Origin: Acidimicrobiia bacterium
GTDB lineage: Bacteria; Actinomycetota; Acidimicrobiia; Spongiisociales; SHLN01
Assembly (NCBI GenBank): GCA_041619515.1
Contig: JBFKDW010000001.1
Span: 79,129 to 127,954, forward strand
Length of the DNA: 48,826 bases
Direction: 5' to 3'
Shown here: positions 15,809 through 45,507 of the stretch, one piece after another
Position numbering within the stretch: the stretch's first letter is position 1
Layout of the letters: every line of letters starts with the position of its first letter
Position numbers and translations under genes: made by a program
The notes under the pieces: generated by a model
Seen by the model: the letters and a program-made list of their open reading frames with translations, nothing else
Database searches by the model: none
Told to the model about the DNA's origin: nothing

Positions 15809-15810
15809 CG

Positions 15811-16902: not shown

Positions 16903-16904
16903 CC

Positions 16905-24146: not shown

Positions 24147-24152
24147 GCCGGA

Positions 24153-25226: not shown

Positions 25227-25245
25227 TCGGCCGCTGACGCCGGGC

Positions 25246-28190: not shown

Positions 28191-28212
28191 GGTGACTCAC
28201 CCCCGCAGACGA

Positions 28213-30048
28213 TCACGCCCGTTCTGATCTGAGCCTCGCCCACCAGGAGCTCCGGGCCGGTTCTTCCGTGGTCCCGAGCCGGTCGGCGGTTGAGCCCACT
28301 CCGGTCGTCATCTCCATCCGCAGCGGCGCCTTGGTATAGGCGTAACCCAGGACCGGCGTGCCGATCAGCTCCATGCGATCGGCCAGATCCTCCAGCTGGC
28401 GGGTCGAGCTCCGGTGAACGACCAGCACCACCGTTGCCTCGGTGTAGGCAACCAGAGTGCTGGCATAGGCCACCTGCAGCAATGGGGGGCAGTCGACCAG
28501 AACCAGGTCGTACAGCATGGGAAGATGGGCAAAGAACTCCCGGGTCAACACCGATTGATAGAAGCTGGCCGCCTCGACATCACGGCTGCCTCGCGACAAC
28601 AGCGACACCGACCGGCCGTCGCCGAGCGAAACTTCCACGAGCGCCTTGAGCAGGTGCACATCGCCCTGAACCACGTCGGTCAGTCCCCACTTCGGTGTCT
28701 CGTCCGTCAGCAGGCGGGTGAGCTCCTGGCTCCCGAAATCGCCGTCGACGAGCAGGATTCGTTTTCCCTCCCGGGCCGCCGCCATGCCTGCGTTCGCAAC
28801 CATGGCCGTCTTTCCGCCACCCACCGTGGCCGACACGATCGACACCATCCTCGCGTCGGTGGCCGATGCGCGGATGTCGATGGCGGCGGCGGCGAAGCGA
28901 AACGCCTCGGCGGCGGCCGAGGTGGGTGCCGCGGTGACCGGGACCTCCGATGAGATCCCCTCGTGGGCGAAGTCGGGAACTTCGGCCAACAGGGGCGCTC
29001 CCAGTACCTGTTCCGGGGACTCGCGGGTTGAGACCGCCTGGTACCGGAGCGCCAGATAGTTGGACAGCACGGCCGCAACCGCCAGCCCGAGCACGAGACT
29101 GGCCGCCAGCACCAGCGCATCGCCGATTCCAGCCGGATCCTCGGGCAGCGCCGCCGGTGAGGCGAGCGTGACTCCGCCCACCGCCAGCTCGGCGTCGACT
29201 GCAATGGCGTTGCGGCGAGCCGTCAGCGCGGCTCGCTCGGTGATGGCGGCGGCGCGCTCGGCCTGCAGAGTCGCCAGCTCCCCGTCCTCCAGCTCGATGG
29301 CCAGGACGGCTCGCCACGTCTCGAAGTCTCGCAGCAGCTCGTCGATTTGCTCGTTGATGGCCAGCCGGGCCTCGCTGCCGAGCGGAAGCGACGCCCGGAC
29401 GGTCCGCAGCGAGTTCAATTGCTGCACCGCGGCGGCGACTTGTGTCTCGAGCTCGAGTCGCTCGGGGTCGGCGGTGGTGAGCTGCTCGATGCGAGTCCCG
29501 AGTGATGCGATCTCGTCATCGACGGCTGCGGTGAGGGCGTCGAGCTTGGCGAGAGCGGCCTCGGCCGTCGCCTCCACCCGGCTTTGGAGAAGGGCCTCGT
29601 AGGCGTTGAGCAGGGCGTCGGCTCCCTGCTTGGCCCGGGCGGGCGTTGCGGCCCGGAATGAGATCTCGATGAGGTTGCTGGTCGAGTCCCCCGTCACGGA
29701 GCGGAATTCGAGGAGCTGCTTGCTGCTGATCTCCCCTCCGGTGAGGTTGCTGGCGAGCAGGGCAGCTTCGCTCGACCTCAGGATTTCCACCTGATCGGCC
29801 AGGTAGCGCTCAGAGTCCTGGGTGGACTGGCGAGCCACGTCGGTGACTTGCAGCGACGAGGCGCGTGGATCCTCGACGATCAGGTCGGCGGTGGCGACGT
29901 AATCGACGGTCTTGGCATCGTTGATGACGAACCCCAGCGCCAGCGCAGCCAGCACGGCCAGCAGCACCACCCAGCGATGCTGCCACATGGAAGCGAGCAG
30001 GCTCGGCTGCGCCGGCTGCCCTTGAACGTTGACTTGCTCCATCGCCAT
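28213..30048 (-). CDS. Wzc-like polysaccharide co-polymerase (Wzz domain, coiled coil, P-loop domain)
   Basis: TM-YVATA, coiled coil, P..P TM, AEAFR, Walker A SATVGGGKT, LLVDGD, LVLVDCPPL. Confidence 0.88.
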   Translation of the reverse strand: MAMEQVNVQGQPAQPSLLASMWQHRWVVLLAVLAALALGFVINDAKTVDYVATADLIVEDPRASSLQVTDVARQSTQDSERYLADQVEILRSSEAALLASNLTGGEISSKQLLEFRSVTGDSTSNLIEISFRAATPARAKQGADALLNAYEALLQSRVEATAEAALAKLDALTAAVDDEIASLGTRIEQLTTADPERLELETQVAAAVQQLNSLRTVRASLPLGSEARLAINEQIDELLRDFETWRAVLAIELEDGELATLQAERAAAITERAALTARRNAIAVDAELAVGGVTLASPAALPEDPAGIGDALVLAASLVLGLAVAAVLSNYLALRYQAVSTRESPEQVLGAPLLAEVPDFAHEGISSEVPVTAAPTSAAAEAFRFAAAAIDIRASATDARMVSIVSATVGGGKTAMVANAGMAAAREGKRILLVDGDFGSQELTRLLTDETPKWGLTDVVQGDVHLLKALVEVSLGDGRSVSLLSRGSRDVEAASFYQSVLTREFFAHLPMLYDLVLVDCPPLLQVAYASTLVAYTEATVVLVVHRSSTRQLEDLADRMELIGTPVLGYAYTKAPLRMEMTTGVGSTADRLGTTEEPARSSWWARLRSERA

Positions 30049-30174: not shown

Positions 30175-31434
30175 TCAGGGACCGAGCCGGTAGGAACTCA
30201 CGGCGGCGTCATCGACGAAGATCGTGTGGGTTTCCGGGGTTGTGTCATTGGCGTAGTTGTTGACCGTCCATTGCCGCTTGCGGGTGTTGTACGGAAGGTC
30301 GAACTCGGTGATGATGCCCGACACGTCCCACAGCAGCTCACCGTCCTGCCAGCAGCTGATCCGGCCATCAGGCTGTTGTGACCAGCGGTAGAAGCACTCC
30401 AGGTGAACCCATGTCCCCGTCGGGATGGCGGTGGAAGAGCTGGCCGGTGTGCTGCCCGGCTGAACGTATTCCCCGTTGGCACCGACCTTGCTCCGAAGCT
30501 TGAAATACATGGCGCCGTCGCTGCGCAGCTCGACGTTGACCGTGTACACCGGATGCCTGGTCTGGGAGCCGTCGCTGCGCACATAGGCCTGCTTCCATTG
30601 ATAGACGTTCCACCAGGTTGAATCCACCGCCTGGGGGAAGTAGTAGTACACGCTGTAGAACGCCTCGGGAGGGAGGTTGTTGGGGTCCGAATCAGGGAGC
30701 GGCTGCACCTTCTCGACGGCCATCCTGACCCCGGGGCTCGGCGAGCCACCGTCTGCGTTGCGGATGGTCAACGCGTTGGCGAACCGTCCCGAATGCGCCA
30801 CCTCCTCGGTCACCCGCGCCTCGGCATCTCCCGAAATGGAGACCCGCGCCCATTCCGACAGGTCACCAGACTCATGGCCTGCCACCCAGCGCGAGAAGTC
30901 GCCGGCGGCCTGGGTCGTCGACGTGGTCGTGGGAGCCGCCGTGGTGGTCGACGTCGCCGGTGGAACGGTCGTCGCAGTCGGCGGCGCAGGTGGAGCGGTC
31001 GTCGTGGTCGGCGGCGCAGGTGGAGCGGTCGTCGTGGTCGGCGGCGCAGGTGGAGCGGTCGTCGTGGTCGACGTCGCCGATGGCGGAGCCGCGAATGCGG
31101 CCGGTGGGGGCGGAGCGCCGGCTGCGGCCACCGACGTCGTGGGGGCGGGTGGCGGCACGGTGTTCGACACGGCACCGGCCTCGGGAGAGCTCAACGGGGC
31201 GGCGGCCGAACCCGACGCGGTAAATGCCTGCTCGAGGCCCGGAGACTCGGGTGGGTCGGCAAAGCGCTGAGCGGTCGCCGAGCCGTCGGCATGCGGAGTG
31301 GCGGCCCCGGTCTCGGTGACCAGGCCGGCCGGGGGTGGTGGAACGACTGCGGCCGCCGCCGCCAGCCCGGCCATGGTGATGGCAATGACCGACACGAAGA
31401 AGTACGGCCGGACCCTCGTTCGAGGCGTTCGCAT
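30175..31434 (-). CDS. secreted/anchored protein with Pro/Thr linker and polysaccharide-lyase-like beta-sandwich domain
   Basis: GAGGAGG RBS, N-terminal hydrophobic helix, PT-rich linker, then HESGDLSEW, AHSGRFA, YSVYYYFP, WWNVYQWK, GTWVHLE, GRISCWQDG, FVDD. Confidence 0.72.
   Translation of the reverse strand: MRTPRTRVRPYFFVSVIAITMAGLAAAAAVVPPPPAGLVTETGAATPHADGSATAQRFADPPESPGLEQAFTASGSAAAPLSSPEAGAVSNTVPPPAPTTSVAAAGAPPPPAAFAAPPSATSTTTTAPPAPPTTTTAPPAPPTTTTAPPAPPTATTVPPATSTTTAAPTTTSTTQAAGDFSRWVAGHESGDLSEWARVSISGDAEARVTEEVAHSGRFANALTIRNADGGSPSPGVRMAVEKVQPLPDSDPNNLPPEAFYSVYYYFPQAVDSTWWNVYQWKQAYVRSDGSQTRHPVYTVNVELRSDGAMYFKLRSKVGANGEYVQPGSTPASSSTAIPTGTWVHLECFYRWSQQPDGRISCWQDGELLWDVSGIITEFDLPYNTRKRQWTVNNYANDTTPETHTIFVDDAAVSSYRLGP
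30961..31070. repeat. 30-bp coding tandem repeat, about 3.7 copies (PPAPPTTTTA)
   Basis: Unit tggagcggtcgtcgtggtcggcggcgcagg at 30961 (variant), 30991, 31021 and 31051 (partial). Confidence 0.9.
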
Positions 31435-31723: not shown

Positions 31724-32419
31724 ATGACGACAATTGCGCTGATAGGGCCCGACGGAGCGGGCAAGACCTCGATCGCCCAGGCGCTGCTCTCCGCCTCCCC
31801 GCTGCCACTCACCTACCTCTACATGGGCACCAGCGTCGAATCAGCCAACATGTCACTGCCGACGTCTCGGCTGGCCCATCACCTGAAGGTGGCCGCCCAC
31901 AAGCGGTCGCTCAGGAAATCCGGACGGGTGATTCCGTCGCGAGTGTCACTGCACGGAGCCGAGCATCGCACAGACAGGCGCGGCAAGCTGGGCGGGCTCT
32001 TGCGGCTGCTCCGGCGCATCTCCGAGGAGTCGTATCGCCAGATCGTCTCCTGGAGGTACCAGCGGCGGGGTGGCATCGTGCTCTACGATCGGCACTTCTT
32101 GTTCGATGCACTGCCCCGTCCGTCCCAACGGGGCCGGGAACGCCGCCTCACCGACCGGATCCACGATTGGTTCCTGTACCGGCTCTACCCGCGGCCCGAT
32201 CTCGTGATCCTGCTCGACGCTCCGCCCGACGTGCTGTACGAGCGCAAGCAGGAGGTGCCGCTCGAGCTCTTGCGAGCCGAGCGGGCGGGGCTGGTAGAGA
32301 AGCTCGAGTACGCCGGGGCACGTGTCATCGTCGACGCCGCCCGGCCATTCGACGTCGTGCTTGCCGATGTCGGTGCGGCGATCGCTGATCATTGCCGGGT
32401 GGAGATGTCCCATGGATAG
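31724..32419 (+). CDS. thymidylate-kinase-like P-loop protein
   Basis: IALIGPDGAGKT, YLYMG, VLYDRH, PRPDLVILLDAPPDVLYERKQE. Confidence 0.82.
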   Translation: MTTIALIGPDGAGKTSIAQALLSASPLPLTYLYMGTSVESANMSLPTSRLAHHLKVAAHKRSLRKSGRVIPSRVSLHGAEHRTDRRGKLGGLLRLLRRISEESYRQIVSWRYQRRGGIVLYDRHFLFDALPRPSQRGRERRLTDRIHDWFLYRLYPRPDLVILLDAPPDVLYERKQEVPLELLRAERAGLVEKLEYAGARVIVDAARPFDVVLADVGAAIADHCRVEMSHG

Positions 32420-33131
32420 TCACCCGCGCGACGGCCTGCCGGCAACGGAGAGACCCACGACCACCGTTCGCAGGCAGCTCAGCGAGTTGCGGCCGCTCCT
32501 GCTGCTCCTATACGTGCCGACGCTGCTCGGCATCGGAGTGCTCGTCGTCGTAGACCTCGTCGCCGACATCCCGTTGCGGCTGTTCTTCATCGACCCGGTC
32601 GCGGAGTTCGCGGCTCCCATGTACGTCGGGCTGGTCTCCAACTTCGGAGTTGCGCTCTGGGTCTCCACCGCCTCGGTCTGCCTCTTCGGGGCCTGGCTGT
32701 TGCATCGTGACCTCCGCACCCTTCCCGAAGCCCAGTTCCTCCTTGGGGCCGGGCTCATCTCGGCGGTGCTGGGGTTCGACGACCTCTACCTGATGCATGA
32801 GGAGGTCCTCCCCGAGCGCCTGCACATACCCGAGCCGGTCGTGTTCGCGGCGTATGGAGCCCTGGTTCTCGGGTTCTTGTTTCGATTCCGCAAGCCGATC
32901 CTCCGGTCGGAGTTTGCCCTGCTGCTGCTTGCCTTCGGGTTCTTTGCGTTCTCGATCTTCGTCGACGTCGTGATCCCGGAAGAAGAGTTCGAGATCGTCG
33001 GCGACCTGGCCGGCCGCCATCTCATCGAAGACGGCTTCAAGCTGTTCGGAATCGTCTCGTGGACCGCCTATTTCTGGCGGGTGGCCGTGCGCATGGTTGG
33101 GGGCGCCCTCAGGCGCCCCCGGGAAGCGTGA
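32412..33131 (+). CDS. multi-pass membrane protein of unknown function
   Basis: About 7 hydrophobic segments; DPVA, YVGLVSNFG, FDDLYLMHE, IEDGFKLFG. Confidence 0.78.
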   Translation: MDSHPRDGLPATERPTTTVRRQLSELRPLLLLLYVPTLLGIGVLVVVDLVADIPLRLFFIDPVAEFAAPMYVGLVSNFGVALWVSTASVCLFGAWLLHRDLRTLPEAQFLLGAGLISAVLGFDDLYLMHEEVLPERLHIPEPVVFAAYGALVLGFLFRFRKPILRSEFALLLLAFGFFAFSIFVDVVIPEEEFEIVGDLAGRHLIEDGFKLFGIVSWTAYFWRVAVRMVGGALRRPREA

Positions 33132-33883
33132 TGCCAACCGTCTACACAATGGAACGCCACCACCAGCTCCTTCACCTGTGGCAGGCTCACTCCGCCACCG
33201 GTTTGCGGGTGGTGCATCTGGATTTCCACTGCGACATGCGTGGGATGCTGATAGATCGTCGCGTCGGCCTTGCCTACCGGATTCGCGATCAGTTCCCGGA
33301 CCTCGACCAGGGCAACTTCCTCGCCCACGCCGTCATGGAAGGCCGCATCGACCGGCTCCGGTGGGTGCACGACGATCCCGGGGGACGGCGCGACGATATC
33401 GGTACGGTCAAATTCGAGTCAGATCTCACTGCCCTGCCGCATCGGGCGGCATTGGCGGTGCGCAACGTGGCGGGGCAGCCCCTGCACTACGAGGTCGTTC
33501 CTGCCCGCCGATGGCAGGGTGTCGAGGAAGACGAGGTCCTCGACATCGACTGGGACTACTTCGCGTGCGTGGACTACCCGACAGATTCGATCCCCGGCCG
33601 TATCGCGTCGTTCTGGGAGACCGACTCTGGTGTCATCCCGGAAGAGACGTACGTCTGCTACTCCCCCGAGTACTCCCATCCCACCCGCCGGCTCTTCGAC
33701 CAGTTTGTCCGCGACCTCGCCGGCCGGTTTGCCGCAACCATCGTGGCGCTCGACCCGCCCGCCACAAACGCGCCGCCCAATCGGCGCATCATCAGCGGCT
33801 ATCTACCCGACCGGGTGTACCGCACGGCCCGATCCGCCTACCGGCGGACCGCTCTGGCCCTCAAGCACCGGGGGCTCTATTGA
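33131..33883 (+). CDS. UPF0489/arginase-deacetylase-fold putative metallohydrolase
   Basis: ERHH, VHLDFHCD, GNFL, LDIDWDYF, YSPEY motifs. Confidence 0.7.
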   Translation: MPTVYTMERHHQLLHLWQAHSATGLRVVHLDFHCDMRGMLIDRRVGLAYRIRDQFPDLDQGNFLAHAVMEGRIDRLRWVHDDPGGRRDDIGTVKFESDLTALPHRAALAVRNVAGQPLHYEVVPARRWQGVEEDEVLDIDWDYFACVDYPTDSIPGRIASFWETDSGVIPEETYVCYSPEYSHPTRRLFDQFVRDLAGRFAATIVALDPPATNAPPNRRIISGYLPDRVYRTARSAYRRTALALKHRGLY

Positions 33884-33899: not shown

Positions 33900-35012
33900 G
33901 TGACCGCGGGCCGCTCGGTACGGGTGATCATCTCCGAGGCACGGTTCGATCCTGTCTGGGATGAGTTCGTCGCCTCAGTCCCCGGAGGAGACCATGTCCA
34001 GACCTCGGCCTGGGCCCGCACCAAAGCGACCCAGGGATATACGGCTACCCGGATCAAGCTCGAAGCGGACGGCCGGATCATCGCCGGAGCCCAGGTTCTC
34101 CGTCGGGGGCTGCCTGCAGTTGGGGCCTTCGGCTACGTCCCGCGCGGTCCGGTCGTTTTCCCCCTTCAACGTGAACCGGCCCGTCTGGTGATCGAGCAAC
34201 TGAAAGTGCTGGCCCGCCGCCGGCGCATACGCCACCTGGTCGTCCAACCGGGACGCCAGGGTGACTGGATCGCCGAGCTCCTCCCGGCGGCGGGCTTGGT
34301 TCCCAGCGCCATCGCCGTCGCGCCGACGGCAACCCTGCTGGTCGAACTGGAGGCCCCCACCGAAGAGCTCTTCGCCAACATCACCAAATCGGCCCGCAAG
34401 CATGTGCGGCGCGGTCTTCGCGAGGGCATTCACGTCCGTCAGGGAACCCGCCAGGATCTCGAGAGGTTCCATGAGCTGGTGGTGGCGACTGCCGATCGGC
34501 ACGGATTCACGCCCTACTCTCTCGACTACTTCACGGCAATGTGGGACGCGTTCGATCCGAGCGATCATCTTCGGCTGTTCATCGCCGAGTTCGACCGGGA
34601 GACGATATCGGCCCACCTGGTCGTGCCGTTCGGAGACGTCCTGTTGTCAAAGGTGGTCGCCTGGTCCGGGAAACATGCTCGGATCTACCCGAACGAGGTC
34701 CTCGAATGGCACGTCATCGAGTGGGCCAAGGCGCACGGATTCCGCGCCTACGACCTGGAGGGGATGGACCGCCACACTGCGGAACAGATGTTGGCGAGCC
34801 CCACGGCCGACGTCGGGCTGCGCAACACCGATACGTTCAAGCTCAAGTTCGGAGGCAGGCCTGTGCTGCTCCCGACCGCCTTCGACTACTTCCCGAGCGC
34901 CCTGCTGGCCGGAACGTACGGGCGGGGCTATCGAGTTGCGTTCTCCGGCGGGTGGCCGAAGACGTCTCTCGCCCGTCTGCGCACCCGCACCCGCAAGAAG
35001 AGCCCGGCGTGA
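33900..35012 (+). CDS. FemABX-family (tRNA-dependent) aminoacyltransferase-like protein
   Basis: WDEFV, HVQTSAWARTK, YVPRGP, ARKHVRR, LEWHVIEWAK..G...YDL.G, FKLKFGG. Start uncertain. Confidence 0.85.
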   Translation: MTAGRSVRVIISEARFDPVWDEFVASVPGGDHVQTSAWARTKATQGYTATRIKLEADGRIIAGAQVLRRGLPAVGAFGYVPRGPVVFPLQREPARLVIEQLKVLARRRRIRHLVVQPGRQGDWIAELLPAAGLVPSAIAVAPTATLLVELEAPTEELFANITKSARKHVRRGLREGIHVRQGTRQDLERFHELVVATADRHGFTPYSLDYFTAMWDAFDPSDHLRLFIAEFDRETISAHLVVPFGDVLLSKVVAWSGKHARIYPNEVLEWHVIEWAKAHGFRAYDLEGMDRHTAEQMLASPTADVGLRNTDTFKLKFGGRPVLLPTAFDYFPSALLAGTYGRGYRVAFSGGWPKTSLARLRTRTRKKSPA

Positions 35013-36205
35013 GCGGGTCAACGCCGGCGGTTGTTCTCGTCGGCCTCGACACGATGCAGGGTTTGCAGGCGGCCCGCATCCTGGCCGGGCACGAGATCCC
35101 GGTCGTCGCCATCGCATCCAGCCCGGCCCACTATGCGTGCCGCACCAACGTGTGCGAGCGGATCATCTTCGCCGACTGCCACAGCGAAGAGGTGATCGAG
35201 GTGCTCGAGCGGGAGGCGTCCAGCTTCGACGAGAAGCCCGTCATCATCCCCTGCGACGACGCCGAGGTGGGCGTGATCTCACGCAACCGGCTCAGGCTCG
35301 AGGATGGCTACCACGTCCCGCTGCCGGCTCCCGAGGTGATCGACCTCATGCTCGACAAGGTGGCCTTCTACTCCTACGCCCAGGACGCCGGGCTTCCGAT
35401 TCCCCGCACTGCTTTCCTTCGCTCCCGGGAGGATGCCGAACGCGCCGCCCGCGACCTTGCGTTCCCGGTGGCGGTCAAACCGCCGGGCAAGGCGGGCCAA
35501 TGGGCCCGGCACACGACGAGAAAAGCGTTCAAGCTCGGCAGCCCGAGCGAGCTGGTTGCCTTCTACGACGACCACCGGACATGGGCCGAGGTGCTGATAG
35601 CACAAGAGTGGGTGGAGGGGCCGGACTCGGAGTTGTACTCCTGCAATGCCTACTTCGACGCCACCGGCAATCCGCTCGTGACCTTCGTAGCCCGCAAGAT
35701 CAGACAATGGCCGCCCCGGGTCGGCGACAGTTCGCTCGGCGTCGAGTGCCGGAACGATCGGGTGGCAGACGTGGCAGTCAAGCTGTTCGGCGGCGTCGGC
35801 TACCACGGGCTCGCCTATCTGGAGATGAAGCGCGACGACCGCTCGGGCGAGTACCTCATCATGGAACCCAACGTCGGCCGGCCCACCGGCCGGTCGGCGA
35901 TAGCCGAAGCGGGTGGCGTCGAGCTCCTGTATACCCTCTACTGCGACACGGTCGGCCGGCCGCTTCCGCCCAGTCGCCACCAGGCGTTCACGGGTGTCAA
36001 GTGGATCAACCTCCGCAAAGATGCCCAGTCGGCATTGCACAGCTGGCGGCGCCGGGAGCTCACCATGCGGGAATGGCGGGAGTCCTGGCGCGGCCCGAAG
36101 GGATACGCCGTGTGGTCGAGGCAAGATCCCCGCCCGTTCTTCAGCGACCTGGCGACCTCGTTTCGCCGGCTCCTCACGCGGAGGCGGGACACCCGGGTTC
36201 GTTGA
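35009..36205 (+). CDS. ATP-grasp carboxylate--amine ligase (D-aspartate-ligase-like)
   Basis: PCDD, DKVAFY, FPVAVKP, IAQEWVEGPD, KIRQWP..G, YLEMKRD, IMEPNVGRP. GTGA-coupled. Confidence 0.87.
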   Translation: MSGSTPAVVLVGLDTMQGLQAARILAGHEIPVVAIASSPAHYACRTNVCERIIFADCHSEEVIEVLEREASSFDEKPVIIPCDDAEVGVISRNRLRLEDGYHVPLPAPEVIDLMLDKVAFYSYAQDAGLPIPRTAFLRSREDAERAARDLAFPVAVKPPGKAGQWARHTTRKAFKLGSPSELVAFYDDHRTWAEVLIAQEWVEGPDSELYSCNAYFDATGNPLVTFVARKIRQWPPRVGDSSLGVECRNDRVADVAVKLFGGVGYHGLAYLEMKRDDRSGEYLIMEPNVGRPTGRSAIAEAGGVELLYTLYCDTVGRPLPPSRHQAFTGVKWINLRKDAQSALHSWRRRELTMREWRESWRGPKGYAVWSRQDPRPFFSDLATSFRRLLTRRRDTRVR

Positions 36206-36976
36206 TCAATCGCTCCCCGGGCCGGGCTTCCGGCAGAACAACACGTTTTCGTCTGCGAGGAGGCCGTAGCGAGCTTTGAGGTCCTCGGACAGTTCGTCGG
36301 CCCGGTCGAGCGTAACCGTGAAGCCGCACGCTTCCAGCCGATCGATGACGTCCACACCGTAGAGCCGCAGATGGTCGGTCTCGCCGAATGCGCGCCGCCG
36401 CGCCTCGGGATCGGTGATGGCGCCGTCCTCGTAGGTGGGGTGGTCGAGACGCAGCGGCACCGAGACCAGGGCCCAGCCGCCCGGCCGCATGACCCTGTGC
36501 AACTCCTGCATCGCCGCCCGGTCGTCCTCCACGTGCTCGAGCACGTGGATGCAAATGACTGCGTCGAAGGTGGCGTCCCCGAACGGAAGACGCTCGGCGG
36601 TGAACCGGACTGATATGAACGGCCGGGCCTCGATGTCACCGGCCACGTAGTCGAGATTCGGAAGCCGCACGAGCCTCCTCGCCAGGCTGAATTTGGGTGA
36701 CACATGGAGCAGGCGGAGCCGGTCGACGAACAGGTTGGTGTTGGCTTGAAGGAACAGCCAGTCCCGCCGGTGGCGGGCTTTGGCGTTGCAGCGCGGGCAA
36801 TAGCCGTTGGCGCGGGCCCGCCATGATCCGTCCGCCTCGGTGAAGGTGCGTAGCCGCCAGCCACAGCAGGGACAGGTGAAGCGGCGTCCGGTGAACAGCA
36901 CCGCCCGCACAGCCAGCATCCGGTCGAAGGCCTTGCTCGTCGCAGCCGGGCGGGCGTAGCGAAAGAGGCTCGCCAT
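36206..36976 (-). CDS. class I SAM-dependent methyltransferase with N-terminal zinc ribbon
   Basis: CPCC...CPRC...RHR, LLHVSP, LPFGDATFD..IC.HVLEHVEDD..AMQELHRVMRPGG, FGETDHLRLYG. Start uncertain. Confidence 0.88.
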   Translation of the reverse strand: MASLFRYARPAATSKAFDRMLAVRAVLFTGRRFTCPCCGWRLRTFTEADGSWRARANGYCPRCNAKARHRRDWLFLQANTNLFVDRLRLLHVSPKFSLARRLVRLPNLDYVAGDIEARPFISVRFTAERLPFGDATFDAVICIHVLEHVEDDRAAMQELHRVMRPGGWALVSVPLRLDHPTYEDGAITDPEARRRAFGETDHLRLYGVDVIDRLEACGFTVTLDRADELSEDLKARYGLLADENVLFCRKPGPGSD

Positions 36977-36986
36977 GGGCAGCTGC

Positions 36987-37907
36987 CTAGCGGGCCGCCC
37001 CGGCCTCTCCGGGGGGGACGTAGGGGGCATCTTCGGCTTCAATGGCACCGCGGGTCCCGACGAGATCGAACACGTGCTCGATTCCGGCAATGTGGTCTTC
37101 CGCCGCCTCGAGGTTTCGAGCCCCGGCGAGTATCTCGAGCGTCTCCTCCATCGCCCGCACCGACGCCCGCATCAGCTGGTTGGCAAAGATGATGAGGTTG
37201 AACCCCTTGGCCCGCAGCTCCTCGGCGGTGAAGCTGGGGAACAGTGTCGGCACTGCGACCAGTGGTACCGAGCCGAGGCCCTTCCATGTCGCCAGGAAGC
37301 TTTCGATCTCACCGAGGGTCTTGTCCTTGGAGTGCATCAGGATGGCGTCGGCTCCCGCCTCGACGTAGGCGTCGGCCCGGGCGCAGGCGTCGTCGAGGCC
37401 GTGGCCGGCGATGAACGACTCGATCCGGGCGATGAGGGCGAACTCGTCTGTTTCCTGAGCCGCTTTTGCCGCCGCAATGCGACGCGCCTGCTCGGTGGCC
37501 GGAAGCAACTCACGCTTGACGGTGCCGGCCAGGAGGCTGTTTCGTTTTGGGAACAGATTGTCCTCGATGGAGATGGCGGCGATTCCGGCTCGTTCGTACT
37601 CGCGGACGGTGCGCACGACGTTGTTGAGACCGCCGAAGCCGTTGTCGCAGTCGGCGATCACCGGCAGGTTGGTCGCGGTGTCGATCCGGACGGCAGCTGC
37701 CAGGGCTTCGGTCATCGTCACCAGATTGAGATCCGGGAGCGCGTGGGTCATGGTCGAGACGCCGAAGCCCGAGACCCACACGGCATCGAAGCCGAACGAG
37801 TCCACGAGCTGAGCGCTCATCGCATCATGGGCGCCGACCGCCACCACCGGGTCCGCGCCCTGCCAGCCTTGGCGCAGACGCAGCCGTTTGTCCCTGGCCA
37901 GGTTCAT
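36987..37907 (-). CDS. pepM: PEP mutase-like enzyme (ICL/PEPM superfamily), variant motif EDNLFPKRNS
   Basis: GAHDAMSA, AVWVSGF, LPD, ADCDNGFG, IEDNLFPKRNSLL, IARIES, ILMHSK, PLVAVPT, IFANQLMRA. GGAG RBS before ATG 37907. Confidence 0.8.
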   Translation of the reverse strand: MNLARDKRLRLRQGWQGADPVVAVGAHDAMSAQLVDSFGFDAVWVSGFGVSTMTHALPDLNLVTMTEALAAAVRIDTATNLPVIADCDNGFGGLNNVVRTVREYERAGIAAISIEDNLFPKRNSLLAGTVKRELLPATEQARRIAAAKAAQETDEFALIARIESFIAGHGLDDACARADAYVEAGADAILMHSKDKTLGEIESFLATWKGLGSVPLVAVPTLFPSFTAEELRAKGFNLIIFANQLMRASVRAMEETLEILAGARNLEAAEDHIAGIEHVFDLVGTRGAIEAEDAPYVPPGEAGAAR

Positions 37908-37954
37908 TGTGTCTTCTCCCATCTTGTTCTTCGGGTTGCTGAGCGGTGTGCCGG

Positions 37955-38932
37955 CTAGGCCAGCAGCTCTGTTGCGCGGGCCTCGGTGTCGAGGTCCCCG
38001 GCCACAAAGGCGGCAACCAGGTCGACCAGGCGTTTGCCGATCTCCTTCTGAGATTCCAGCGCCATGCCTCCAATATGGGGTGTCAGCACCACATTCGACA
38101 GGTCGGCCAGCCTCGGGATCACCCCGGTGCCCTCGTATTCGTGAACGTCGAGCGCCGCACCGGCGAGTCGACCCGATGCCAGGGCGTCGTATAGGGCCTC
38201 CTCGTCGACGACGCCTCCCCGCGACGTGTTGATCAGGTAGGCGCCGGAGGCCATGACCGCAAGCTGTGACGCCCCGATCAGCTTGAGGGTTGCGTCGGTG
38301 AGCGGAGTGTGGATGGTGACGATATCCGAGCCGCGTAGCACCTCGTCGAGAGTGCCGGCGCGCACATGCGGCGGGGGCTCCCATGCCAGCCCGGGCTCGA
38401 CACAGCCGATCACGTTCATTCCGAGCGCCACGGCCAGCTCGGCAACTCGCGTCCCGATGTTACCGACGCCAACCACCCCGAGGACTTTGCCGGCCAGCAG
38501 CGGGCCGCCCAGGGAGGGCTTGGGCCAGCGGCCCTGGCGCACGAGGCCGTCGGCCAAAACGATGCGGCGCGACGTGGCGAGGATCAGTCCGAGGGTGAAC
38601 TCGGCCACGGCCTCGGCGGCCGGACCCGGAATCCGAACCACCCGAATCCCTCGCCGCTGTGCGTGGTCGAGATCGATGTTGTCGAACCCGGAACCGGCCC
38701 GGACGATGAGGGCCAGCTTGGGTGCGAGATCCATCAGCTGAGCGTCGATCTCGACTCCGCTTCGGACCACGAGAACTTCGCGATCCTCCAGCAGGTCCGG
38801 AAGATGGCCACCGAAGTCGTCGAAGGCGCTCACGACGTCATGCAGGTCCGCCAGCCTGGCGACGGCATCGCCATCAACCGGGCTGGCGAGGATGACGTTG
38901 AGGCGCCCCTTACTCTCCGTGTTCACCCCCAT
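37955..38932 (-). CDS. D-isomer-specific 2-hydroxyacid dehydrogenase (SerA-like, no ACT domain); candidate phosphonopyruvate reductase
   Basis: VVRS, RAGSGFDNID, AVAEF, GVGNIG, HTPLT, INTSRGGVVDE, DV..E, TPHIGG. TAAGGT lies 6 nt before GTG 38926, suggesting an alternative leaderless start. Confidence 0.88.
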   Translation of the reverse strand: MGVNTESKGRLNVILASPVDGDAVARLADLHDVVSAFDDFGGHLPDLLEDREVLVVRSGVEIDAQLMDLAPKLALIVRAGSGFDNIDLDHAQRRGIRVVRIPGPAAEAVAEFTLGLILATSRRIVLADGLVRQGRWPKPSLGGPLLAGKVLGVVGVGNIGTRVAELAVALGMNVIGCVEPGLAWEPPPHVRAGTLDEVLRGSDIVTIHTPLTDATLKLIGASQLAVMASGAYLINTSRGGVVDEEALYDALASGRLAGAALDVHEYEGTGVIPRLADLSNVVLTPHIGGMALESQKEIGKRLVDLVAAFVAGDLDTEARATELLA

Positions 38933-39028
38933 ACCTTAGGGCTCAATCCGGACGGTGCGGACACGGCTCGCACCTGGCGGGGCCGTGCCGAACTCGGTAG
39001 GTTGAGGAGACCGGTTGAGGGGATCGGA

Positions 39029-39886
39029 TTGGAACGGAAGCGGAGGCTGGGGCTCGGCGCCATGATCGTCGTCGTCACCGGCCTCCTCATGACCCCGGTC
39101 GGCGATGCGACCGCCGATGAGCCCGGCACCGGCGACGTGGTTGTGCTCGTCGAACCAAGCGGCCGCTGGCACATTCGGACCTCCGGAATCGTCGACTACA
39201 CGTTCTGGTACGGAGTGCCCGGCGATGTGCCGCTCCTCGGCGATTGGGATGGTGACGGCGACGACACCCCGGGCATGTACCGGCCGAGCACGGGCTTCGC
39301 CTACCTGACCAACGAGTTGCCGCCGGATCGGGGAGTCGGCGTGGCAGACCCGTCACTGACGTTCTATTTCGGCATCCCCGGCGACCAGGTGTTCGGCGGC
39401 GACTGGGACGGTGACGGGGACGACACGCTCGGCATCAGCCGATCAGGCCATCTGTACCTCAGAAACAGCAACACCACAGGATTCGCCGACCTGGATTTCT
39501 GGTTCGGTGCCGCCGACGACCTGGCCTATGGCGGTGATCCGGACGGCGACGGCTCCGACAACGTGCTGGTCTACCGCGGCTCCACCGGGTTCGTGTATTA
39601 CCGGAACAGCAACACCTCCGGGATAGCCGACGGCGGGGCGTACTTCGGCGAGCCCACGGACCGGTTCGTGATGGGAGACTGGGATGGCGATGGGGACGAC
39701 ACCGTCGGGATGTTTCGACCGAGCGAACGAAGGGTGTATCTGAGCAACAGCCTGGAATCGGGCCCGGCCGACGTCACCTACACCTGGGGACAGAGCAGCT
39801 GGCTGCCGGTGGCCGGCAAGCTCATCCTCCCGTCCGACGAACCCGACCGCGCTCGGGAGGTCCCGGCACTCTCGGGTCCGGCCTGA
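39029..39886 (+). CDS. secreted protein of GDWDGDG (FG-GAP-like, Ca-binding) repeats
   Basis: Signal-like N-terminus and four repeats of (Y/F)G.P.D....GD(W/P)DGDG.D. TTG 39029 follows GAGGGG. Confidence 0.8.
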   Translation: MERKRRLGLGAMIVVVTGLLMTPVGDATADEPGTGDVVVLVEPSGRWHIRTSGIVDYTFWYGVPGDVPLLGDWDGDGDDTPGMYRPSTGFAYLTNELPPDRGVGVADPSLTFYFGIPGDQVFGGDWDGDGDDTLGISRSGHLYLRNSNTTGFADLDFWFGAADDLAYGGDPDGDGSDNVLVYRGSTGFVYYRNSNTSGIADGGAYFGEPTDRFVMGDWDGDGDDTVGMFRPSERRVYLSNSLESGPADVTYTWGQSSWLPVAGKLILPSDEPDRAREVPALSGPA

Positions 39887-39904: not shown

Positions 39905-41074
39905 TCATCGGGGGTCGGCACCGCGATGGTCCAGCCGGCCGAGGCGTTCCACCGCCCGGCGCAGGGTGTCGGTGTCGCGCGAAAACGAGAAGCGCACCAG
40001 GGAGGAACCGGCGGCGGGGTCGGTATAGAAGACCGAGGGCGGGATCGCGGCCACCCCGCACTGCTCGATCAAGTGGCGGCAGAAGCTCCGATCGTCTTGG
40101 AACCCGAAGGCGGTGTGGTCGGCCATGACGAAGTAGGTGCCCTCTGGCCGATACGGGCGCAGCCCGGCGTGCTCGAGGCCATCGACCAGCACGTCGCGCC
40201 GCTCCCGGTATGAATCCCGCAGCTCGTCGTAGAACTGGTCGGAGGCCCCCAGCGCCGTCACCGCTCCGTGCTGGACCGGGGTCGGGGTGGTGAAGGTCAG
40301 GAACTGGTGGGCTGCCCGCAGGCCGGCCGTGAGCCCCGGTGGCGCAATGGCCCACCCGACCTTCCATCCGGTGAGCGAGTAGGTCTTGCCGAGCGATGAG
40401 AGCGTTACGGTGCGCTCCTCCATGCCGGGCAGCCGGGCAAGGCGTCGATGCTCGGTTTCGTAGGTCATCCACTCGTAGACCTCGTCGCAGATGGCGATGA
40501 GGTCGCGCTCCTGGCAGAGACGGGCGATTTCGCCGAGCTCGGCGTCGTCGAACACTCTCCCGGTCGGGTTGTGCGGTGTGTTGACGACGATCGCCCTGGT
40601 ACGCGACGTGACGGCGGCGCGCAACTCGTCCGGCTCGAGGCGGAAGTCGGGTGGGCGGAGGGTCACGGTCCGAACCAACGCGCCGGCCAGGGCCGCATCG
40701 ACCGGGTAGGCGTCGTAGAACGGCTCGATGAGGACGACCTCGTCACCGGGGTCGAGGAGGCCGAGGAAACTGGCCGCCAGCGCCTCGGTGCACCCGGTGG
40801 TGACCGTGATCTCCTCCACCGGGTCGAGGTCACGTCCCAGCAGTGGTCCGTACCGGTCCGCCAGGGCGGCCCGCAATTGGGGGATCCCGGGGCTGGCCGG
40901 GTACTGGTCCCTGCCGCCCTCCAGCGACCGGGCGGCTGCCTGCTTGATGAATTCGGGCCCGTCCCAGTTCGGAAAGCCCTGTCCGAGGTTTATCGCCCCA
41001 TGCCGTTCGGCCAGCTGGGTGATCTCGGTGAAGATGGTCACCCCGAAGGGTTGGAGGCGGCGGGATACCGGCAT
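39905..41074 (-). CDS. PLP-dependent class I/II aminotransferase (DapC/YbdL-like)
   Basis: INLGQGFP, EPFYDAY, NTPHNPTG, DEVYE, SLGKTYSLTGWKVG. TAGGCT lies 6 nt before the ATG. Confidence 0.93.
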   Translation of the reverse strand: MPVSRRLQPFGVTIFTEITQLAERHGAINLGQGFPNWDGPEFIKQAAARSLEGGRDQYPASPGIPQLRAALADRYGPLLGRDLDPVEEITVTTGCTEALAASFLGLLDPGDEVVLIEPFYDAYPVDAALAGALVRTVTLRPPDFRLEPDELRAAVTSRTRAIVVNTPHNPTGRVFDDAELGEIARLCQERDLIAICDEVYEWMTYETEHRRLARLPGMEERTVTLSSLGKTYSLTGWKVGWAIAPPGLTAGLRAAHQFLTFTTPTPVQHGAVTALGASDQFYDELRDSYRERRDVLVDGLEHAGLRPYRPEGTYFVMADHTAFGFQDDRSFCRHLIEQCGVAAIPPSVFYTDPAAGSSLVRFSFSRDTDTLRRAVERLGRLDHRGADPR

Positions 41075-41545: not shown

Positions 41546-44335
41546 TCACGACGGTTGATCGCAGGCATAGGCGGGATCGCCGTCTCCGAGATAGCGCCCG
41601 GCTTCGGTTTCGGTGAATCGCCGATCCCCGACAATGTCACAGGCAGCGGCCGCCACTTGGTCGGGACGGAGCTCCCACCGATGCACGCCCGACCCGCCTG
41701 CGTACACCACGCCCGAGTCGCTCGGATCGAACGTCACGCTCTGGGGCTGGGAGCCGAACTCGTTGCGGAGCGGACGGCCGACAATCGTCCCGGTTGCGAG
41801 GTCCCAGACGATGACGGTGGAATCCTCGCTCGATGAGGCCAGGCGGGCGCCGTCGACACTAAAAGCCACCGAGATGACACGGTCGTCGTGCCCGATGAGC
41901 CGTTGCACGAGCTCACCCGAAGCCAGATCCCACAGCTGAATGGTCCGGTCGTCGCTTCCGGTCGCCACAACGGGCTCCGTCGGGTGAACGGCCACCGCGT
42001 CAACCGTGGCGCGATGCCCCCGGAACACGAGAACCTCATCTGCCCCGGCCACCGACCAGACCCGGGCGGTCCGGTCCTCGCCGACCGAGATGACGACGGT
42101 GTCCGCCGACCCAAACGCCACCTCGGCCACATACCCGCCGCCGTGGTCGAAGGCCGTTTGGAGACCCGACTCCACCTCGGTGAGCACGACCCGCCCGTCC
42201 CGTCCTCCGCTCGCCACGAGCGTGCCGTCCCGGCTACCGGCCACCGAAGTCACACCCGGGTGTATCCCGACCTCAACGAACGATCCGTCCGGCTTCCGGA
42301 CCACTAACCGGCCGTCCCCGGTTCCAAACGCAAGATCTCCCGCTTCGCCCAGCGGAGCAACCGCCGCCACCGCACCGGCCCACACCGGATCGGTCCCCAG
42401 GCCGGCGCCGCCCGGATCGACCAGCTCCAGGCCGACAGCTCCGCCGACCGCCAGCTGCGAAACGGAGAAGGCCACCGACCGGACACCAGCCTGAACCGAC
42501 GGACGAGAGGCGAGAGGCGACCGGTCCTCCAGCTCCCAGGTGACGAGCCTGCCGTCGCTCAAGATGGATCGGCCGCGGTCGTCGTCGGCGAAGACGACGG
42601 CCAGCACCGAGGTCACGGCGCGATCCTCGGGAAGGCTGGCCACCACCGCCAGCTCAAACCCGGAAGCCACGTCCCAGGTCCGCACGGTCCCGTCGAGGCT
42701 GCCCGATATCAAGCGGGATCCCGGCTCGTTGAAGGCGACCGAGGTGACCCAATCGCCGTGCCCTCCCACGAGGCGCCGCGGCTCGTCAACCCGGCGAACC
42801 GTCCACATGTGGACCGACCCGTTGTCGGTTCCGCCCGCCAGCAGCTCGCCGTCCGGGGAGAAGGCGAACGACCGAAGCCCGGAGGGCGCCGGTGGCGGGG
42901 GGGGAAAGGGCAGACCGGTCGAGGGCTGCAAGAGGGTGAGGCCACCATCGATCGATCCGATGGCCAGCATGTCGGCATCACCCTGAAACGCGAGGGCGTT
43001 GATCTGCATGCCAGGAGAGACGGCCCCGGTTTCGACACAATCGGCGGCGGCCGTCTTCACCATCACCTCCCCGCCAGTTTGGATGACGGCGGCCACCCGG
43101 GCTCCCCCGGCATCCAGAGCGACCACTGTGGCGATGCCTCCAAATGAGCACTCAGCGACGATCGACCCACCGGCTCGTTCCAGGATGCGGACCCCGTCGG
43201 TCGTTCCGAACGCCATGCGGGTGCCATCGCCACTCACCGCCAGGGCGGTGGTGCTCCCGCTGCCGACGGGGTCGGTCGCCGTACCGGAGCCGGCCTCCCA
43301 GTCGTAAACAACATCCTCGGTGGTCCGGTACAGCGCCCATCTGCCGTCGGGGGTGAAGGCAGCGGCGTCGACCGGCGCATCGACACTGAGCGGCGTCGCC
43401 GATCGCAACCCCGGACCATCCGTCACTCCCCGGATGAGCTCCGATTGGGTTTGGAGGCTGTCGTCCAGGGCAACCCCTTCCAACGCAAGCAGCAAGCCGA
43501 GGTCGAGCTGGTCGTCGTAGAGCGTCGAGGCGTCGCTGGCCCGTCGCAGCGACTCTGCGATCCGCTCGTTCGCTTCCGCCACCTGCCACTGCCACACCGC
43601 CAGGCCGGCGGCGATCGCGATGAGGGTCACCGCCATTGCGATGCCACTCCATACGATGCGGCGCCGTTTCTCGGCCGACGTGCCGGCGCCCACGTACTCG
43701 GTCTGCAACTGGGTAACGGTCGGCTCACTGTCGGGATCAGCCGCCGTCAGGGCATCGCGGGCGCCATGAAGATCGCTCCCCCGCAGCAACAAGCTGCCGT
43801 CCCGCTCCAGCCCCGCCCATTCCAGCGCCCGTTCCAGCAACCGGGTGTGGAAGTCGATCCAGTCGAGATCGCGGTCGGCCGCCTCCTGCAATGATCCGGA
43901 TGCCGGAGCCGGGTCGTCCGGGTCGGCCACGATCCAGTTGATTCGTTCGATCTCCTCGGGAATCGGCTCCCCCGGTTCATCGAGCTTGACGACGATGAGC
44001 CGCTTTCCGTATTCGAGCGCCTTGTCCAGTTCCCGACGGCACTGTGCGGATCGGAGCGAATGATCCGAGAGCATGAACGTGAAGGCGTCGGAGCCGGCTA
44101 TCCCCTGGTCGACCCGATCCCGCCATTCAGCACTGGCCGGGATGTCTTCGAGGTCGAACCACAGCTCCTTGCCTGCCGCCCGCAGGGCATCGAGGAGGGG
44201 CTCCACCCGCTGGGTGTCCCGCCGGCTGTAGCAGATGAAGAGGTCCGGCTTCTCAGGAAGCCCCCGTTCCTCCGGTTGAGGCGACGTCGTCGTGTCGGGA
44301 GCCGCAGGATCGGGCAGATCGGGGCTCGACGTCAC
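41546..44335 (-). CDS. TIR-domain / single TM / WD40 beta-propeller protein
   Basis: TIR: LFICYSRRD, WFDLEDIP, LSDHSLRSAQCRREL..A...GKRLIVV. LLRGSDL linker, TM after RRR, then many WD40 repeats (GHGDWVTSVAFN..SGSLDGTVRTWD; GHDDRVISVAFS..SSSEDSTVIVWD). GTGA-coupled to the upstream lipoprotein. Confidence 0.92.
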   Translation of the reverse strand: MTSSPDLPDPAAPDTTTSPQPEERGLPEKPDLFICYSRRDTQRVEPLLDALRAAGKELWFDLEDIPASAEWRDRVDQGIAGSDAFTFMLSDHSLRSAQCRRELDKALEYGKRLIVVKLDEPGEPIPEEIERINWIVADPDDPAPASGSLQEAADRDLDWIDFHTRLLERALEWAGLERDGSLLLRGSDLHGARDALTAADPDSEPTVTQLQTEYVGAGTSAEKRRRIVWSGIAMAVTLIAIAAGLAVWQWQVAEANERIAESLRRASDASTLYDDQLDLGLLLALEGVALDDSLQTQSELIRGVTDGPGLRSATPLSVDAPVDAAAFTPDGRWALYRTTEDVVYDWEAGSGTATDPVGSGSTTALAVSGDGTRMAFGTTDGVRILERAGGSIVAECSFGGIATVVALDAGGARVAAVIQTGGEVMVKTAAADCVETGAVSPGMQINALAFQGDADMLAIGSIDGGLTLLQPSTGLPFPPPPPAPSGLRSFAFSPDGELLAGGTDNGSVHMWTVRRVDEPRRLVGGHGDWVTSVAFNEPGSRLISGSLDGTVRTWDVASGFELAVVASLPEDRAVTSVLAVVFADDDRGRSILSDGRLVTWELEDRSPLASRPSVQAGVRSVAFSVSQLAVGGAVGLELVDPGGAGLGTDPVWAGAVAAVAPLGEAGDLAFGTGDGRLVVRKPDGSFVEVGIHPGVTSVAGSRDGTLVASGGRDGRVVLTEVESGLQTAFDHGGGYVAEVAFGSADTVVISVGEDRTARVWSVAGADEVLVFRGHRATVDAVAVHPTEPVVATGSDDRTIQLWDLASGELVQRLIGHDDRVISVAFSVDGARLASSSEDSTVIVWDLATGTIVGRPLRNEFGSQPQSVTFDPSDSGVVYAGGSGVHRWELRPDQVAAAACDIVGDRRFTETEAGRYLGDGDPAYACDQPS

Positions 44336-45507
44336 GGCACGATCGTAAAGGAGTAGGTCGCCTCGCTCTTGCCTCCGGCATGGTCCATCGGGTCGACCCG
44401 TGCATAGAGCTGGCACGTCGGTGGTTCGGCAAAGGAAAGTGGATCCGGAATGGTGACTTCAACCTGGTAACGGGTCGTGCCGAGAGGTGAGGGATAGGCA
44501 GGCTCTGGTCCTTCCGTGACGGTGCACGACCCCTGCCAAACGTCCACCCATATCCCGAAGCCGTTGCCCGAGTTCTCCAGGACCACCAGCGTGAAGGAAC
44601 CGCCGGTCGCGCTAAACGACACCTCTTCTCCCTGCGAAACAATGTTCAGATCCAGGCTGGGCTGACGTATTTCGATGAGGGCGACAACCGGGTCGGGAGC
44701 CTCATAGTTGATTGAGGGCTCGGCGGCCTGTACTCGGATGCCGCAGGTTGCGGACAATGATGGGATCCCCGGCAGTTTCAGGTGCTGGTTCACGATCTCA
44801 CATGCGTCGTTGCTATAGGCCCCATCAACGTCGAAGATCTCGTACACCAAAGGAATAGCGGGTTCGACCACCGCCCACAAAGGAACTTCCAATGTCCGGG
44901 TATAGCGGACCGCGGATGCTCCGATCCTGTTCTCGAAGGTGATGTTTGGTTGGGCTTTGGCGATATCGAGTGTCAGCGGATCGGACTCGGCCGCTGCCCA
45001 TGTCGCATTCCCGGGATGCCTGGCTGTGATCGAGCATGTGCCCACCGACTCGATCGAGACCACCCCCGAGCGTTCAACCACCGTGCACCCGCCGGTCGCT
45101 GCGTACACGACACTGTCGTTTTCACCCGACGACGCCTCAGCAGTCACCGTGAAGTCAGGATCGCCCCAGCGCTTCTCACCGACCGCCGTCGTAAACACGA
45201 CTGTCTGAGGCGCAGGCGGCGCCGTCGTTGTAGTCGCCGGCGCGGCGGTCGTGGTGGTCGATGACCCGACCGTCGTGGTAGTGGACGACTCGACCGTTGT
45301 CGTAGTCGATGACCCCACCGTCGTCGTAGTCGATGACCCCACCGTCGTCGTAGTCGACGGCCCAACCGCGGTCGTGGTCGACGGTCCCACCACCATGGTC
45401 GTGGCGGCATCACCACCACCGCATGACGCCAACACCAGCAGTGACGTGGCCAACGCCAGCCTGCCTCGGCGAACCCTAGGGAGCAATAGCGAAGGTAACA
45501 GTGTCAC
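44332..45507 (-). CDS. lipoprotein with Thr/Ser-rich stalk and Cys-containing beta (Ig-like) domains, paralog 2
   Basis: Lipobox LASC, VG(P/S)STTTT repeats, KRWGDPDFTVTA..GGCTVV..VGTCSITA..KAQP.ITFE. Start uncertain; overlaps the paralog 1 end. Confidence 0.8.
   Translation of the reverse strand: MTLLPSLLLPRVRRGRLALATSLLVLASCGGGDAATTMVVGPSTTTAVGPSTTTTVGSSTTTTVGSSTTTTVESSTTTTVGSSTTTTAAPATTTTAPPAPQTVVFTTAVGEKRWGDPDFTVTAEASSGENDSVVYAATGGCTVVERSGVVSIESVGTCSITARHPGNATWAAAESDPLTLDIAKAQPNITFENRIGASAVRYTRTLEVPLWAVVEPAIPLVYEIFDVDGAYSNDACEIVNQHLKLPGIPSLSATCGIRVQAAEPSINYEAPDPVVALIEIRQPSLDLNIVSQGEEVSFSATGGSFTLVVLENSGNGFGIWVDVWQGSCTVTEGPEPAYPSPLGTTRYQVEVTIPDPLSFAEPPTCQLYARVDPMDHAGGKSEATYSFTIVP
45248..45390. 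repeat. 24-bp coding tandem repeat, about 6 imperfect copies (VGxSTTTT)
   Basis: Units such as gtcgatgaccccaccgtcgtcgta repeated in tandem. Confidence 0.85.

Follow-up and report, generated by a model that had tools for sequence, protein, structure and literature searches.

A glycan-linked gene cassette of an Acidimicrobiia genome, predicted to make phosphonolactate

What does a gene for an enzyme resembling phosphoenolpyruvate (PEP) mutase do beside a surface-polysaccharide locus, and where does its product go? The question is raised by a stretch of 48,826 nucleotides (nt), here called the window, which forms the end of contig C1 of an Acidimicrobiia genome (3.1 Mb, 95.65% complete; window GC content about 67%). 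The mutase-like gene lies there with genes for a dehydrogenase and an ATP-grasp ligase, and these three make up a conserved, glycan-linked cassette. Our preferred reading, to which we assign a probability of roughly 0.55, is that the cassette in this Wzx/Wzy locus makes phosphonolactate and ligates it to a surface glycan, which would here also carry a methyl cap. The genes on which this reading turns are the following.

37955-38932, minus strand: D-2-hydroxyacid dehydrogenase from a clade linked to mutases, which would reduce phosphonopyruvate in a VlpB-like role (PF02826 and PF00389; 325 aa)
36987-37907, minus strand: PEP-mutase-like enzyme whose loop reads EDNLFPKRNS and which would form the C-P bond (PF13714, 189 bits; 306 aa, ATG at 37907)
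36206-36976, minus strand: protein with the fold of a class I S-adenosylmethionine (SAM) methyltransferase, an optional cassette member (PF08241; 256 aa)
35009-36205, plus strand: ATP-grasp ligase of the cassette core, with phosphonolactate, activated at its carboxylate, as predicted substrate (fold model, conserved homologues)
31724-32419, plus strand: thymidylate-kinase-like (TMK-like) P-loop protein, a usual cassette member (conserved motifs, PDB profile matches)

A conserved cassette in glycan loci

The first-pass annotation had proposed a phosphonolactate operon of three genes, for the dehydrogenase, the mutase and the methyltransferase. In line with that proposal, the three genes form a tight minus-strand unit, with gaps of 47 nt between dehydrogenase and mutase and 10 nt between mutase and methyltransferase, next to Wzx, Wzy and Wzc genes. 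The methyltransferase stop touches the stop of the convergent ATP-grasp gene base to base. A promoter scan was uninformative, with 0 sites where 0.8 were expected.

We surveyed related loci from both ends of the cassette. Of 158 related stretches, the mutase-seeded set retains the 80 best, and 61 of these are in the clade of the window mutase (60-81% identity; nearest named relative an uncultured Acidimicrobiaceae bacterium, 81%), which spans Actinomycetota, Chloroflexota and KSB1; the other 19 loci belong to a more distant clade in which the dehydrogenase is not adjacent. The reverse set, seeded with the ATP-grasp, holds 80 of 437 metagenome stretches, mostly short loci. Loci counted as well flanked have 6 kb on both sides in the mutase-seeded set (41 of the 61) and 3 kb on both sides in the ATP-grasp-seeded set (15 of the 80). 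In addition, 301 genomes of the class were sampled. The datasets overlap (genome G234 is locus L006, and G242 is L021), and all trees are quick trees. The unpublished genome G301 enters as a single tree row (L106) and supports no claim made here. Matches to FGGAP in the loci were opposite-strand shadows of the dehydrogenase gene and were disregarded.

Across the 61 mutase-seeded loci the dehydrogenase is present in 58, and in 57 it is immediately adjacent, directly upstream of the mutase; the ATP-grasp is found in 58, the TMK-like gene in 47, a kinase resembling HprK and FomB (family c7) in 45 and the methyltransferase in 2. The 41 well-flanked loci give the same picture (dehydrogenase 40, ATP-grasp 41, TMK-like 36, c7 36, methyltransferase 1), with three of their ATP-grasps more distant, at about 30%. 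Seeding with the ATP-grasp recovered a mutase in 41 of 80 loci and the dehydrogenase in 37, or 11 and 12, respectively, of the 15 with sufficient flanks. In the class sample, the dehydrogenase clade occurs in seven genomes, six of which have it adjoining a mutase, and the ATP-grasp clade in five, all with a mutase and four with it adjacent. Named strains that carry the kinase variant of the cassette are Geodermatophilus telluris DSM 45421 and Nocardioides caldifontis YIM 730233. Between mutase and ATP-grasp, loci L008 (11001-12095) and L009 (10957-12141) hold an insert that we take to be phytase-like, and the KSB1 locus L011 (10912-15385) holds inserts that are presumably VTC-like and CotH-like.

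Comparative genomics lends support to two parts of the annotated operon, synthesis by a mutase and a reductase and the tie to glycan genes, and its three genes are real; the extent of the unit has to be redrawn. The core is dehydrogenase, mutase and ATP-grasp, usually with the TMK-like kinase. The ATP-grasp and TMK-like genes, which had been left out, are both linked more tightly than the methyltransferase, an accessory present in 2 of 61 mutase-seeded and 12 of 80 ATP-grasp-seeded loci.

The glycan setting, likewise anticipated, is as constant as the core: glycan genes occur at all 41 well-flanked loci, across Actinomycetota, Chloroflexota and KSB1, and 39 of these loci encode Wzx, Wzy, Wzz/Wzc or a priming transferase. 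This constancy, and the lack of a recurring exporter among the annotated neighbour families, speak against the proposal that glycan islands are a mere residence for genes whose product is a small molecule, or a phosphonolactyl amide linked to peptidoglycan or lipid. We think that proposal rather unlikely, although peptides are the products of known phosphonate ATP-grasps, the window ATP-grasp is coupled to a FemAB-like gene, and some copies lie away from glycan genes. The latter belong to a group of observations that count against a fixed, glycan-linked unit. In G023 a unit of methyltransferase, dehydrogenase and canonical mutase lies 1.7 Mb from the ATP-grasp, which is itself in a glycan locus; G230 (93% complete) has the dehydrogenase-mutase pair, and no ATP-grasp was found in it; L015 and L021 have housekeeping neighbours downstream; no mutase is within reach in 4 of the 15 well-flanked ATP-grasp loci; and in G276 the dehydrogenase heads a similar glycan locus that is cut by the contig end, with no clade mutase found. 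The split unit of G023 (L088, G023:C1:239000-258999; and L087) lies between an ATP-binding cassette transporter and a GMC oxidoreductase. The pair of G230, a dehydrogenase and a canonical mutase (L090, G230:C83), lies near a GDPD gene, and that genome has no match to the methyltransferase or c7 either.

The mutase and its predicted reductase

The window mutase is the sole strong match to PF13714 among three in its genome. Its closest solved relatives are the PEP mutases 5unc (220 bits) and 1m1b (190 bits), with the phosphonopyruvate hydrolase 2dua lower (177 bits). The catalytic set described for the Mytilus PEP mutase (Asp58/85/87, Glu114, Asn122, Ser123, Arg159, His190; PMC7916636) is matched throughout, by D59, D86, D88, E115, N123, S124, R161 and H192. 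We rejected phosphonopyruvate hydrolase as an identity on two grounds, the retention of N123 where the hydrolase has Thr and a TIGR02321 score of 188 bits against a cut-off of 374.4.

Two results speak against a mutase assignment: the loop departs from the EDKX5NS motif, and the TIGR02320 score of 259.3 bits lies below the curated cut-off of 319.55. Three relatives score similarly (257-269 bits), EDN is found in 61 of 61 clade loci and in 120 of 120 homologues among the matches listed, and the EDN enzymes form a separate clade (support 93) that is not nested among EDK mutases. Loci L067-L085 (Binatia, Rokubacteria and Omnitrophota) hold a second mutase-like clade, reading EDNxFPKRCS or KCS and carrying long C-terminal extensions; it too lacks EDKX5NS, and no dehydrogenase adjoins it.

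These same departures, together with an equilibrium that favours PEP more than 500-fold (PMC12871164), could be taken to mean that the EDN enzyme forms no C-P bond and instead hydrolyses or cleaves some other 2-oxo acid, or that the pair runs in reverse and salvages phosphonolactate to PEP. We consider this improbable. The best reason to regard the EDN enzyme as a mutase is that EDN and EDK mutases fill one cassette slot: the mutases of the 41 ATP-grasp-seeded loci that have one are canonical EDK enzymes in 31, EDN enzymes in 7 and partial in 3, and canonical mutases are paired with the window's dehydrogenase clade in G007, G023 and G230. N123 and every other listed catalytic residue are retained, and the cassette is surrounded by biosynthetic glycan genes and an ATP-consuming ligase. 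By these sequence criteria the window enzyme is PepM-like and a predicted PEP mutase, not a formal PepM member, and would convert PEP to phosphonopyruvate.

The enzyme predicted to act next has a branch of its own. A branch with support 99 divides a 48-row tree, with the 23 dehydrogenases of cassettes to one side and four full-length SerA proteins and 21 other paralogues to the other. The tree comparison called for by the first-pass annotation, which had described the enzyme as SerA-like, thus places it apart from SerA. Since the gene pair is also conserved and linked to glycan loci, the proposal came through the three of its refuting conditions that sequence comparison can address. SerA identity was also rejected on score, at 246 bits on TIGR01327 against a cut-off of 454; the genome's own full-length SerA is encoded on contig C42 and reaches 624 bits. 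R57, S58, R238, E267 and H286 are present in the window dehydrogenase. The VlpB-like branch of phosphonate loci is recognised by a PF02826 gene within five genes of ppm (PMC8942020); here the two are adjacent, and no decarboxylase reaches cut-off. It counts against this assignment that the likeness to VlpB is one of role and gene context, no VlpB having been found in plasmids or in a 351-genome sample of the phylum.

One well-flanked locus, L023, is without a cassette dehydrogenase, and none was found in its genome at E 1e-40. Inside its cassette lies a gene (L023:12712-13782) for which L-sulfolactate dehydrogenase is the best family match, at 243 bits against a cut-off of 500. L-sulfolactate dehydrogenase reduces sulfopyruvate, the sulfur analogue of phosphonopyruvate, and this replacement, a single case, fits a step that reduces a 2-oxo acid. 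L023 also carries two TMK-like genes.

Scans of the window against Pfam and NCBIfam covered 52 and 39 open reading frames (ORFs), respectively, and gave no match to phosphonopyruvate decarboxylase, 2-aminoethylphosphonate (AEP) transaminase or NTP_transf_3. The absence from the window of the first two and of a cytidylyltransferase, as originally noted, is therefore borne out among the ORFs scanned. Across the genome, at its 95.65% completeness, the best decarboxylase score is 27 bits (TIGR03297, cut-off 312.5) and the best AEP transaminase score 101 bits (TIGR02326, cut-off 400.8). None of the 11 genomes examined has a decarboxylase above cut-off, and PhnJ was not found in the window's genome.

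A class I/II aminotransferase gene (39905-41074; PF00155) does lie close by, at a distance of no more than five genes from the mutase, which is the mark of the phosphonoalanine class (PMC8942020). We nevertheless rejected transamination to phosphonoalanine as the pulling step, and regard it as highly improbable: none of the 80 mutase loci has a homologue, not even that of the relative at 81% identity, which extends 10 kb upstream, and the best family of the protein is the generic PRK07777 (488 bits, below 553).

Taken together, it is quite probable from the gene content that mutase and reductase jointly yield phosphonolactate, with the dedicated dehydrogenase pulling the mutase equilibrium by an NAD(P)H-dependent reduction of phosphonopyruvate.

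Ligation and capping of the product

By its modelled fold (pLDDT 93) and its nucleotide- and metal-binding residues, the 35009-36205 product is an ATP-grasp ligase. The best fold match has a Z-score of 27.2 (rmsd 3.4, 294 aligned, 20% identity), and K117, K157, E272, E286 and N288 are invariant in 27 rows. The fold gives no substrate, since there is no close solved relative. PnaB is described as an ATP-grasp that ligates phosphonoalanine to dipeptides (PMC11867202). By analogy, we propose that the window enzyme would turn the carboxylate of phosphonolactate into an acyl phosphate and couple it to an amine of the glycan repeat unit, a step that we somewhat favour. The amine would plausibly be that of an amino sugar made by the Gfo/DegT pair, or of an amino acid that the FemAB-like protein attaches, both encoded among the neighbouring genes of the window.

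33900-35012, plus strand: FemAB/GNAT-like transferase (PF02388, PF13480; start uncertain, 33900 or 33924)
25246-30048, minus strand: Wzc, Wzy-like protein and Wzx of the host polysaccharide locus (PF02706/AAA_31, PF04932, PF01943)
14966-24146, plus strand: priming transferase, Gfo/Idh/MocA dehydrogenase, DegT aminotransferase, glycosyltransferases of family 4 (GT4), UDP-sugar dehydrogenase and GNAT protein (Pfam, NCBIfam)

The genes at 14966-24146 could supply an amino sugar as acceptor, and the glycan genes at about 14966-30048 include three of the GT4 type. Gfo and DegT homologues are present in the window and in its closest relative; none of the 61 mutase-seeded loci has one within 10 kb, so the acceptor is not conserved, which counts against the preferred reading. 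A polysaccharide deacetylase is encoded in 17 of the 61 mutase-seeded loci. The FemAB-like gene overlaps the ATP-grasp start by 4 nt, and close homologues (at least 39% over more than 300 aa) occur at 5 of 14 methyltransferase loci, three of the five being close kin of the window, and at 0 of 63 kinase loci.

The TMK-like protein, to which the preferred reading gives no step, is at the root of the main rival of carboxylate ligation. It keeps its kinase motifs: GxDGxGK and DRH are conserved in 25 rows, and the best PDB profile matches are thymidylate kinases. Phosphonolactate could instead be linked through its phosphonate end, with the TMK-like kinase, and a second kinase where there is one, making a phosphonyl-phosphate in place of cytidylyltransferase activation while the ATP-grasp only amidates the carboxylate. 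The TMK-like gene is found, with P-loop and DRH intact, in 36 of the 41 well-flanked loci, no cytidylyltransferase occurs among the annotated recurrent neighbour families, and the second kinase weakly matches the FomB family. Even so, we judge this route unlikely, in that the ATP-grasp is the more constant gene (41 of 41 loci) and the neighbour clusters include no cassette-specific recurrent transferase.

On the preferred reading, in which the carboxylate is ligated, the methyltransferase would act last. Its product has a class I SAM methyltransferase fold by model and family match: PF08241 scores 57.5 bits, above its cut-off, the model has a pLDDT of 89, and all Foldseek matches share the methyltransferase fold, with TM-scores of about 0.5. 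C35, C38, C60 and C63, near the N terminus, are invariant in 17 rows. DhpI is reportedly a phosphonate O-methyltransferase and so a precedent for such a reaction; it is not among the fold matches listed.

Methyltransferase and c7 kinase alternate. Across 141 loci (many of them short contigs) the methyltransferase is found in 14, c7 in 63 and both in none. Across 53 whole genomes, a comparison from which 13 short loci were left out, the counts are 6, 42 and 1, and the single co-occurring methyltransferase lies outside the cassette and falls among homologues that are not cassette members (support 98). Furthermore, the two occupy the same gene slots: immediately after the ATP-grasp at eight (methyltransferase) and 13 (c7) loci, and directly before the TMK-like gene in 5 of 9 and 45 of 54 cases, respectively. 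This alternation marks the methyltransferase as optional yet cassette-specific, and the window, in whose genome no c7 kinase was found, has the methyltransferase form of the cassette. From the alternation and the shared slots we infer that methyltransferase and c7 act on the same position. The methyltransferase would then cap a site, in the simplest case an oxygen of the phosphonate, that in other lineages the HprK/FomB-like kinase would phosphorylate.

We offer this last step only tentatively, in view of several points on the other side. Class I SAM methyltransferases have a glycine-rich SAM-binding motif I, and at this position the window protein reads a degenerate LLHVSP, followed by a conserved D114. 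Six of the 53 genomes carry neither gene, and the Fisher p value of 9e-4 for the alternation across them is overstated, because the genomes are related and many methyltransferase loci are short contigs. Finally, c7 matches HprK-related kinases, and FomB only weakly (E 6e-5 to 3e-3, far below cut-off).

Several further genes of the window were noted in passing. A UPF0489 protein (33059-33883, plus strand) with a weak peptide-arginase match, whose homologues are confined to close relatives, lies between the TMK-like and FemAB-like genes. A polysaccharide lyase domain after a Pro/Thr-rich linker (30175-31434, minus strand) stands at the head of the Wzc-Wzy-Wzx run, and a gene divergent from that of the glycan operon (12772-14703, minus strand) encodes an AsnB-type amidotransferase that may form amides of uronic acids. 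After DegT lies a protein with a weak GH127-like match (18059-19258, plus strand), which has a 59% homologue in G276; the corresponding stretch of G234, a genome of the same genus, has none. An open frame overlapping the dehydrogenase (38366-39886, plus strand) has a secreted-like second half with DWDGDG repeats and no Pfam match. Elsewhere, a 956-aa protein with N-terminal TIR_2 and WD40 repeats (41546-44416, minus strand) may serve in defence or signalling, and the NCBIfam scan identified a mycothiol synthase.

Relation to known phosphonate systems

Our literature search, whose coverage excluded most subscription papers, returned no account of this cassette, of phosphonolactyl glycans or of EDN mutases. 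Surveys of phosphonate genes demand EDKX5NS (PMC8942020, PMC12723261) and would discard an EDN mutase because EDN replaces EDK, so that this clade, which accounts for 61 of the 80 retained genome loci, would escape them. A glycan bearing phosphonolactyl groups would add both a new surface chemistry and a new activity for a ligase. Installation on the polysaccharide, like O-methylation, is a prediction. It is conceivable, though we would put it below even odds, that the cassette stands for a widespread and undescribed class of phosphonoglycan that is N-acylated with phosphonolactate by an ATP-grasp, involves no nucleotidyl activation, has a swappable cap (methyl here, phosphoryl elsewhere) and is partly made by EDN enzymes. 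Phosphonate production in soil and sediment would in that case be undercounted, as surveys filtered by motif drop those enzymes.

The closest known system is valinophos of Streptomyces durhamensis (mutase VlpA, reductase VlpB, ATP-grasp VlpF). A mutase with a VlpB-like reductase is a described branch point, whose members are called valinophos-like (PMC8942020), and the passages of that 2022 source that deal with phosphonolactate report it solely from the valinophos producer. The window cassette shares with valinophos the mutase and PF02826 dehydrogenase, an ATP-grasp and the lack of a decarboxylase (PMC8942020, PMC12723261). It differs in lying at a glycan locus, in its EDN mutase and in having a TMK-like kinase and a methyltransferase. 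Families of the vlpC, vlpD and vlpE type (PG-kinase, ArgC, PhpC-type) are absent from the 52 window ORFs and the 30 recurrent neighbour clusters scanned, to which this search was confined, so the product likely stops at phosphonolactate. No glycan-linked member of the VlpB branch is mentioned in the sections of PMC8942020 that treat it.

Other systems share single elements. Canonical PEP mutases (1m1b, 5unc; TIGR02320) have the same listed catalytic residues and differ in reading EDK and in belonging to a separate clade. PnaB, likened here by its description, is likewise an ATP-grasp that joins a three-carbon phosphonate acid to an amine, whereas its substrate is phosphonoalanine and its product a peptide (PMC11867202). 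In gene cluster family (GCF) 540 of Li and Horsman a thymidylate kinase flanks the mutase, as in the cassette, together with a PF14907 nucleotidyltransferase, which was not seen in the window cassette. The linkage of phosphonate to polysaccharide genes is shared with the phosphonoglycans that carry AEP or 2-hydroxyethylphosphonate, such as Bacteroides fragilis polysaccharide B and the exopolysaccharide of Stackebrandtia nassauensis (PMC8942020, PMC3266647). These characterised phosphonoglycans, as the same two sources describe them, bear two-carbon phosphonates from the decarboxylase route, whereas decarboxylase and AEP transaminase both fall below cut-off in the window's genome. Set against these systems, the cassette is a variant of the known mutase-plus-reductase branch, one that is real, conserved and linked to glycan loci.

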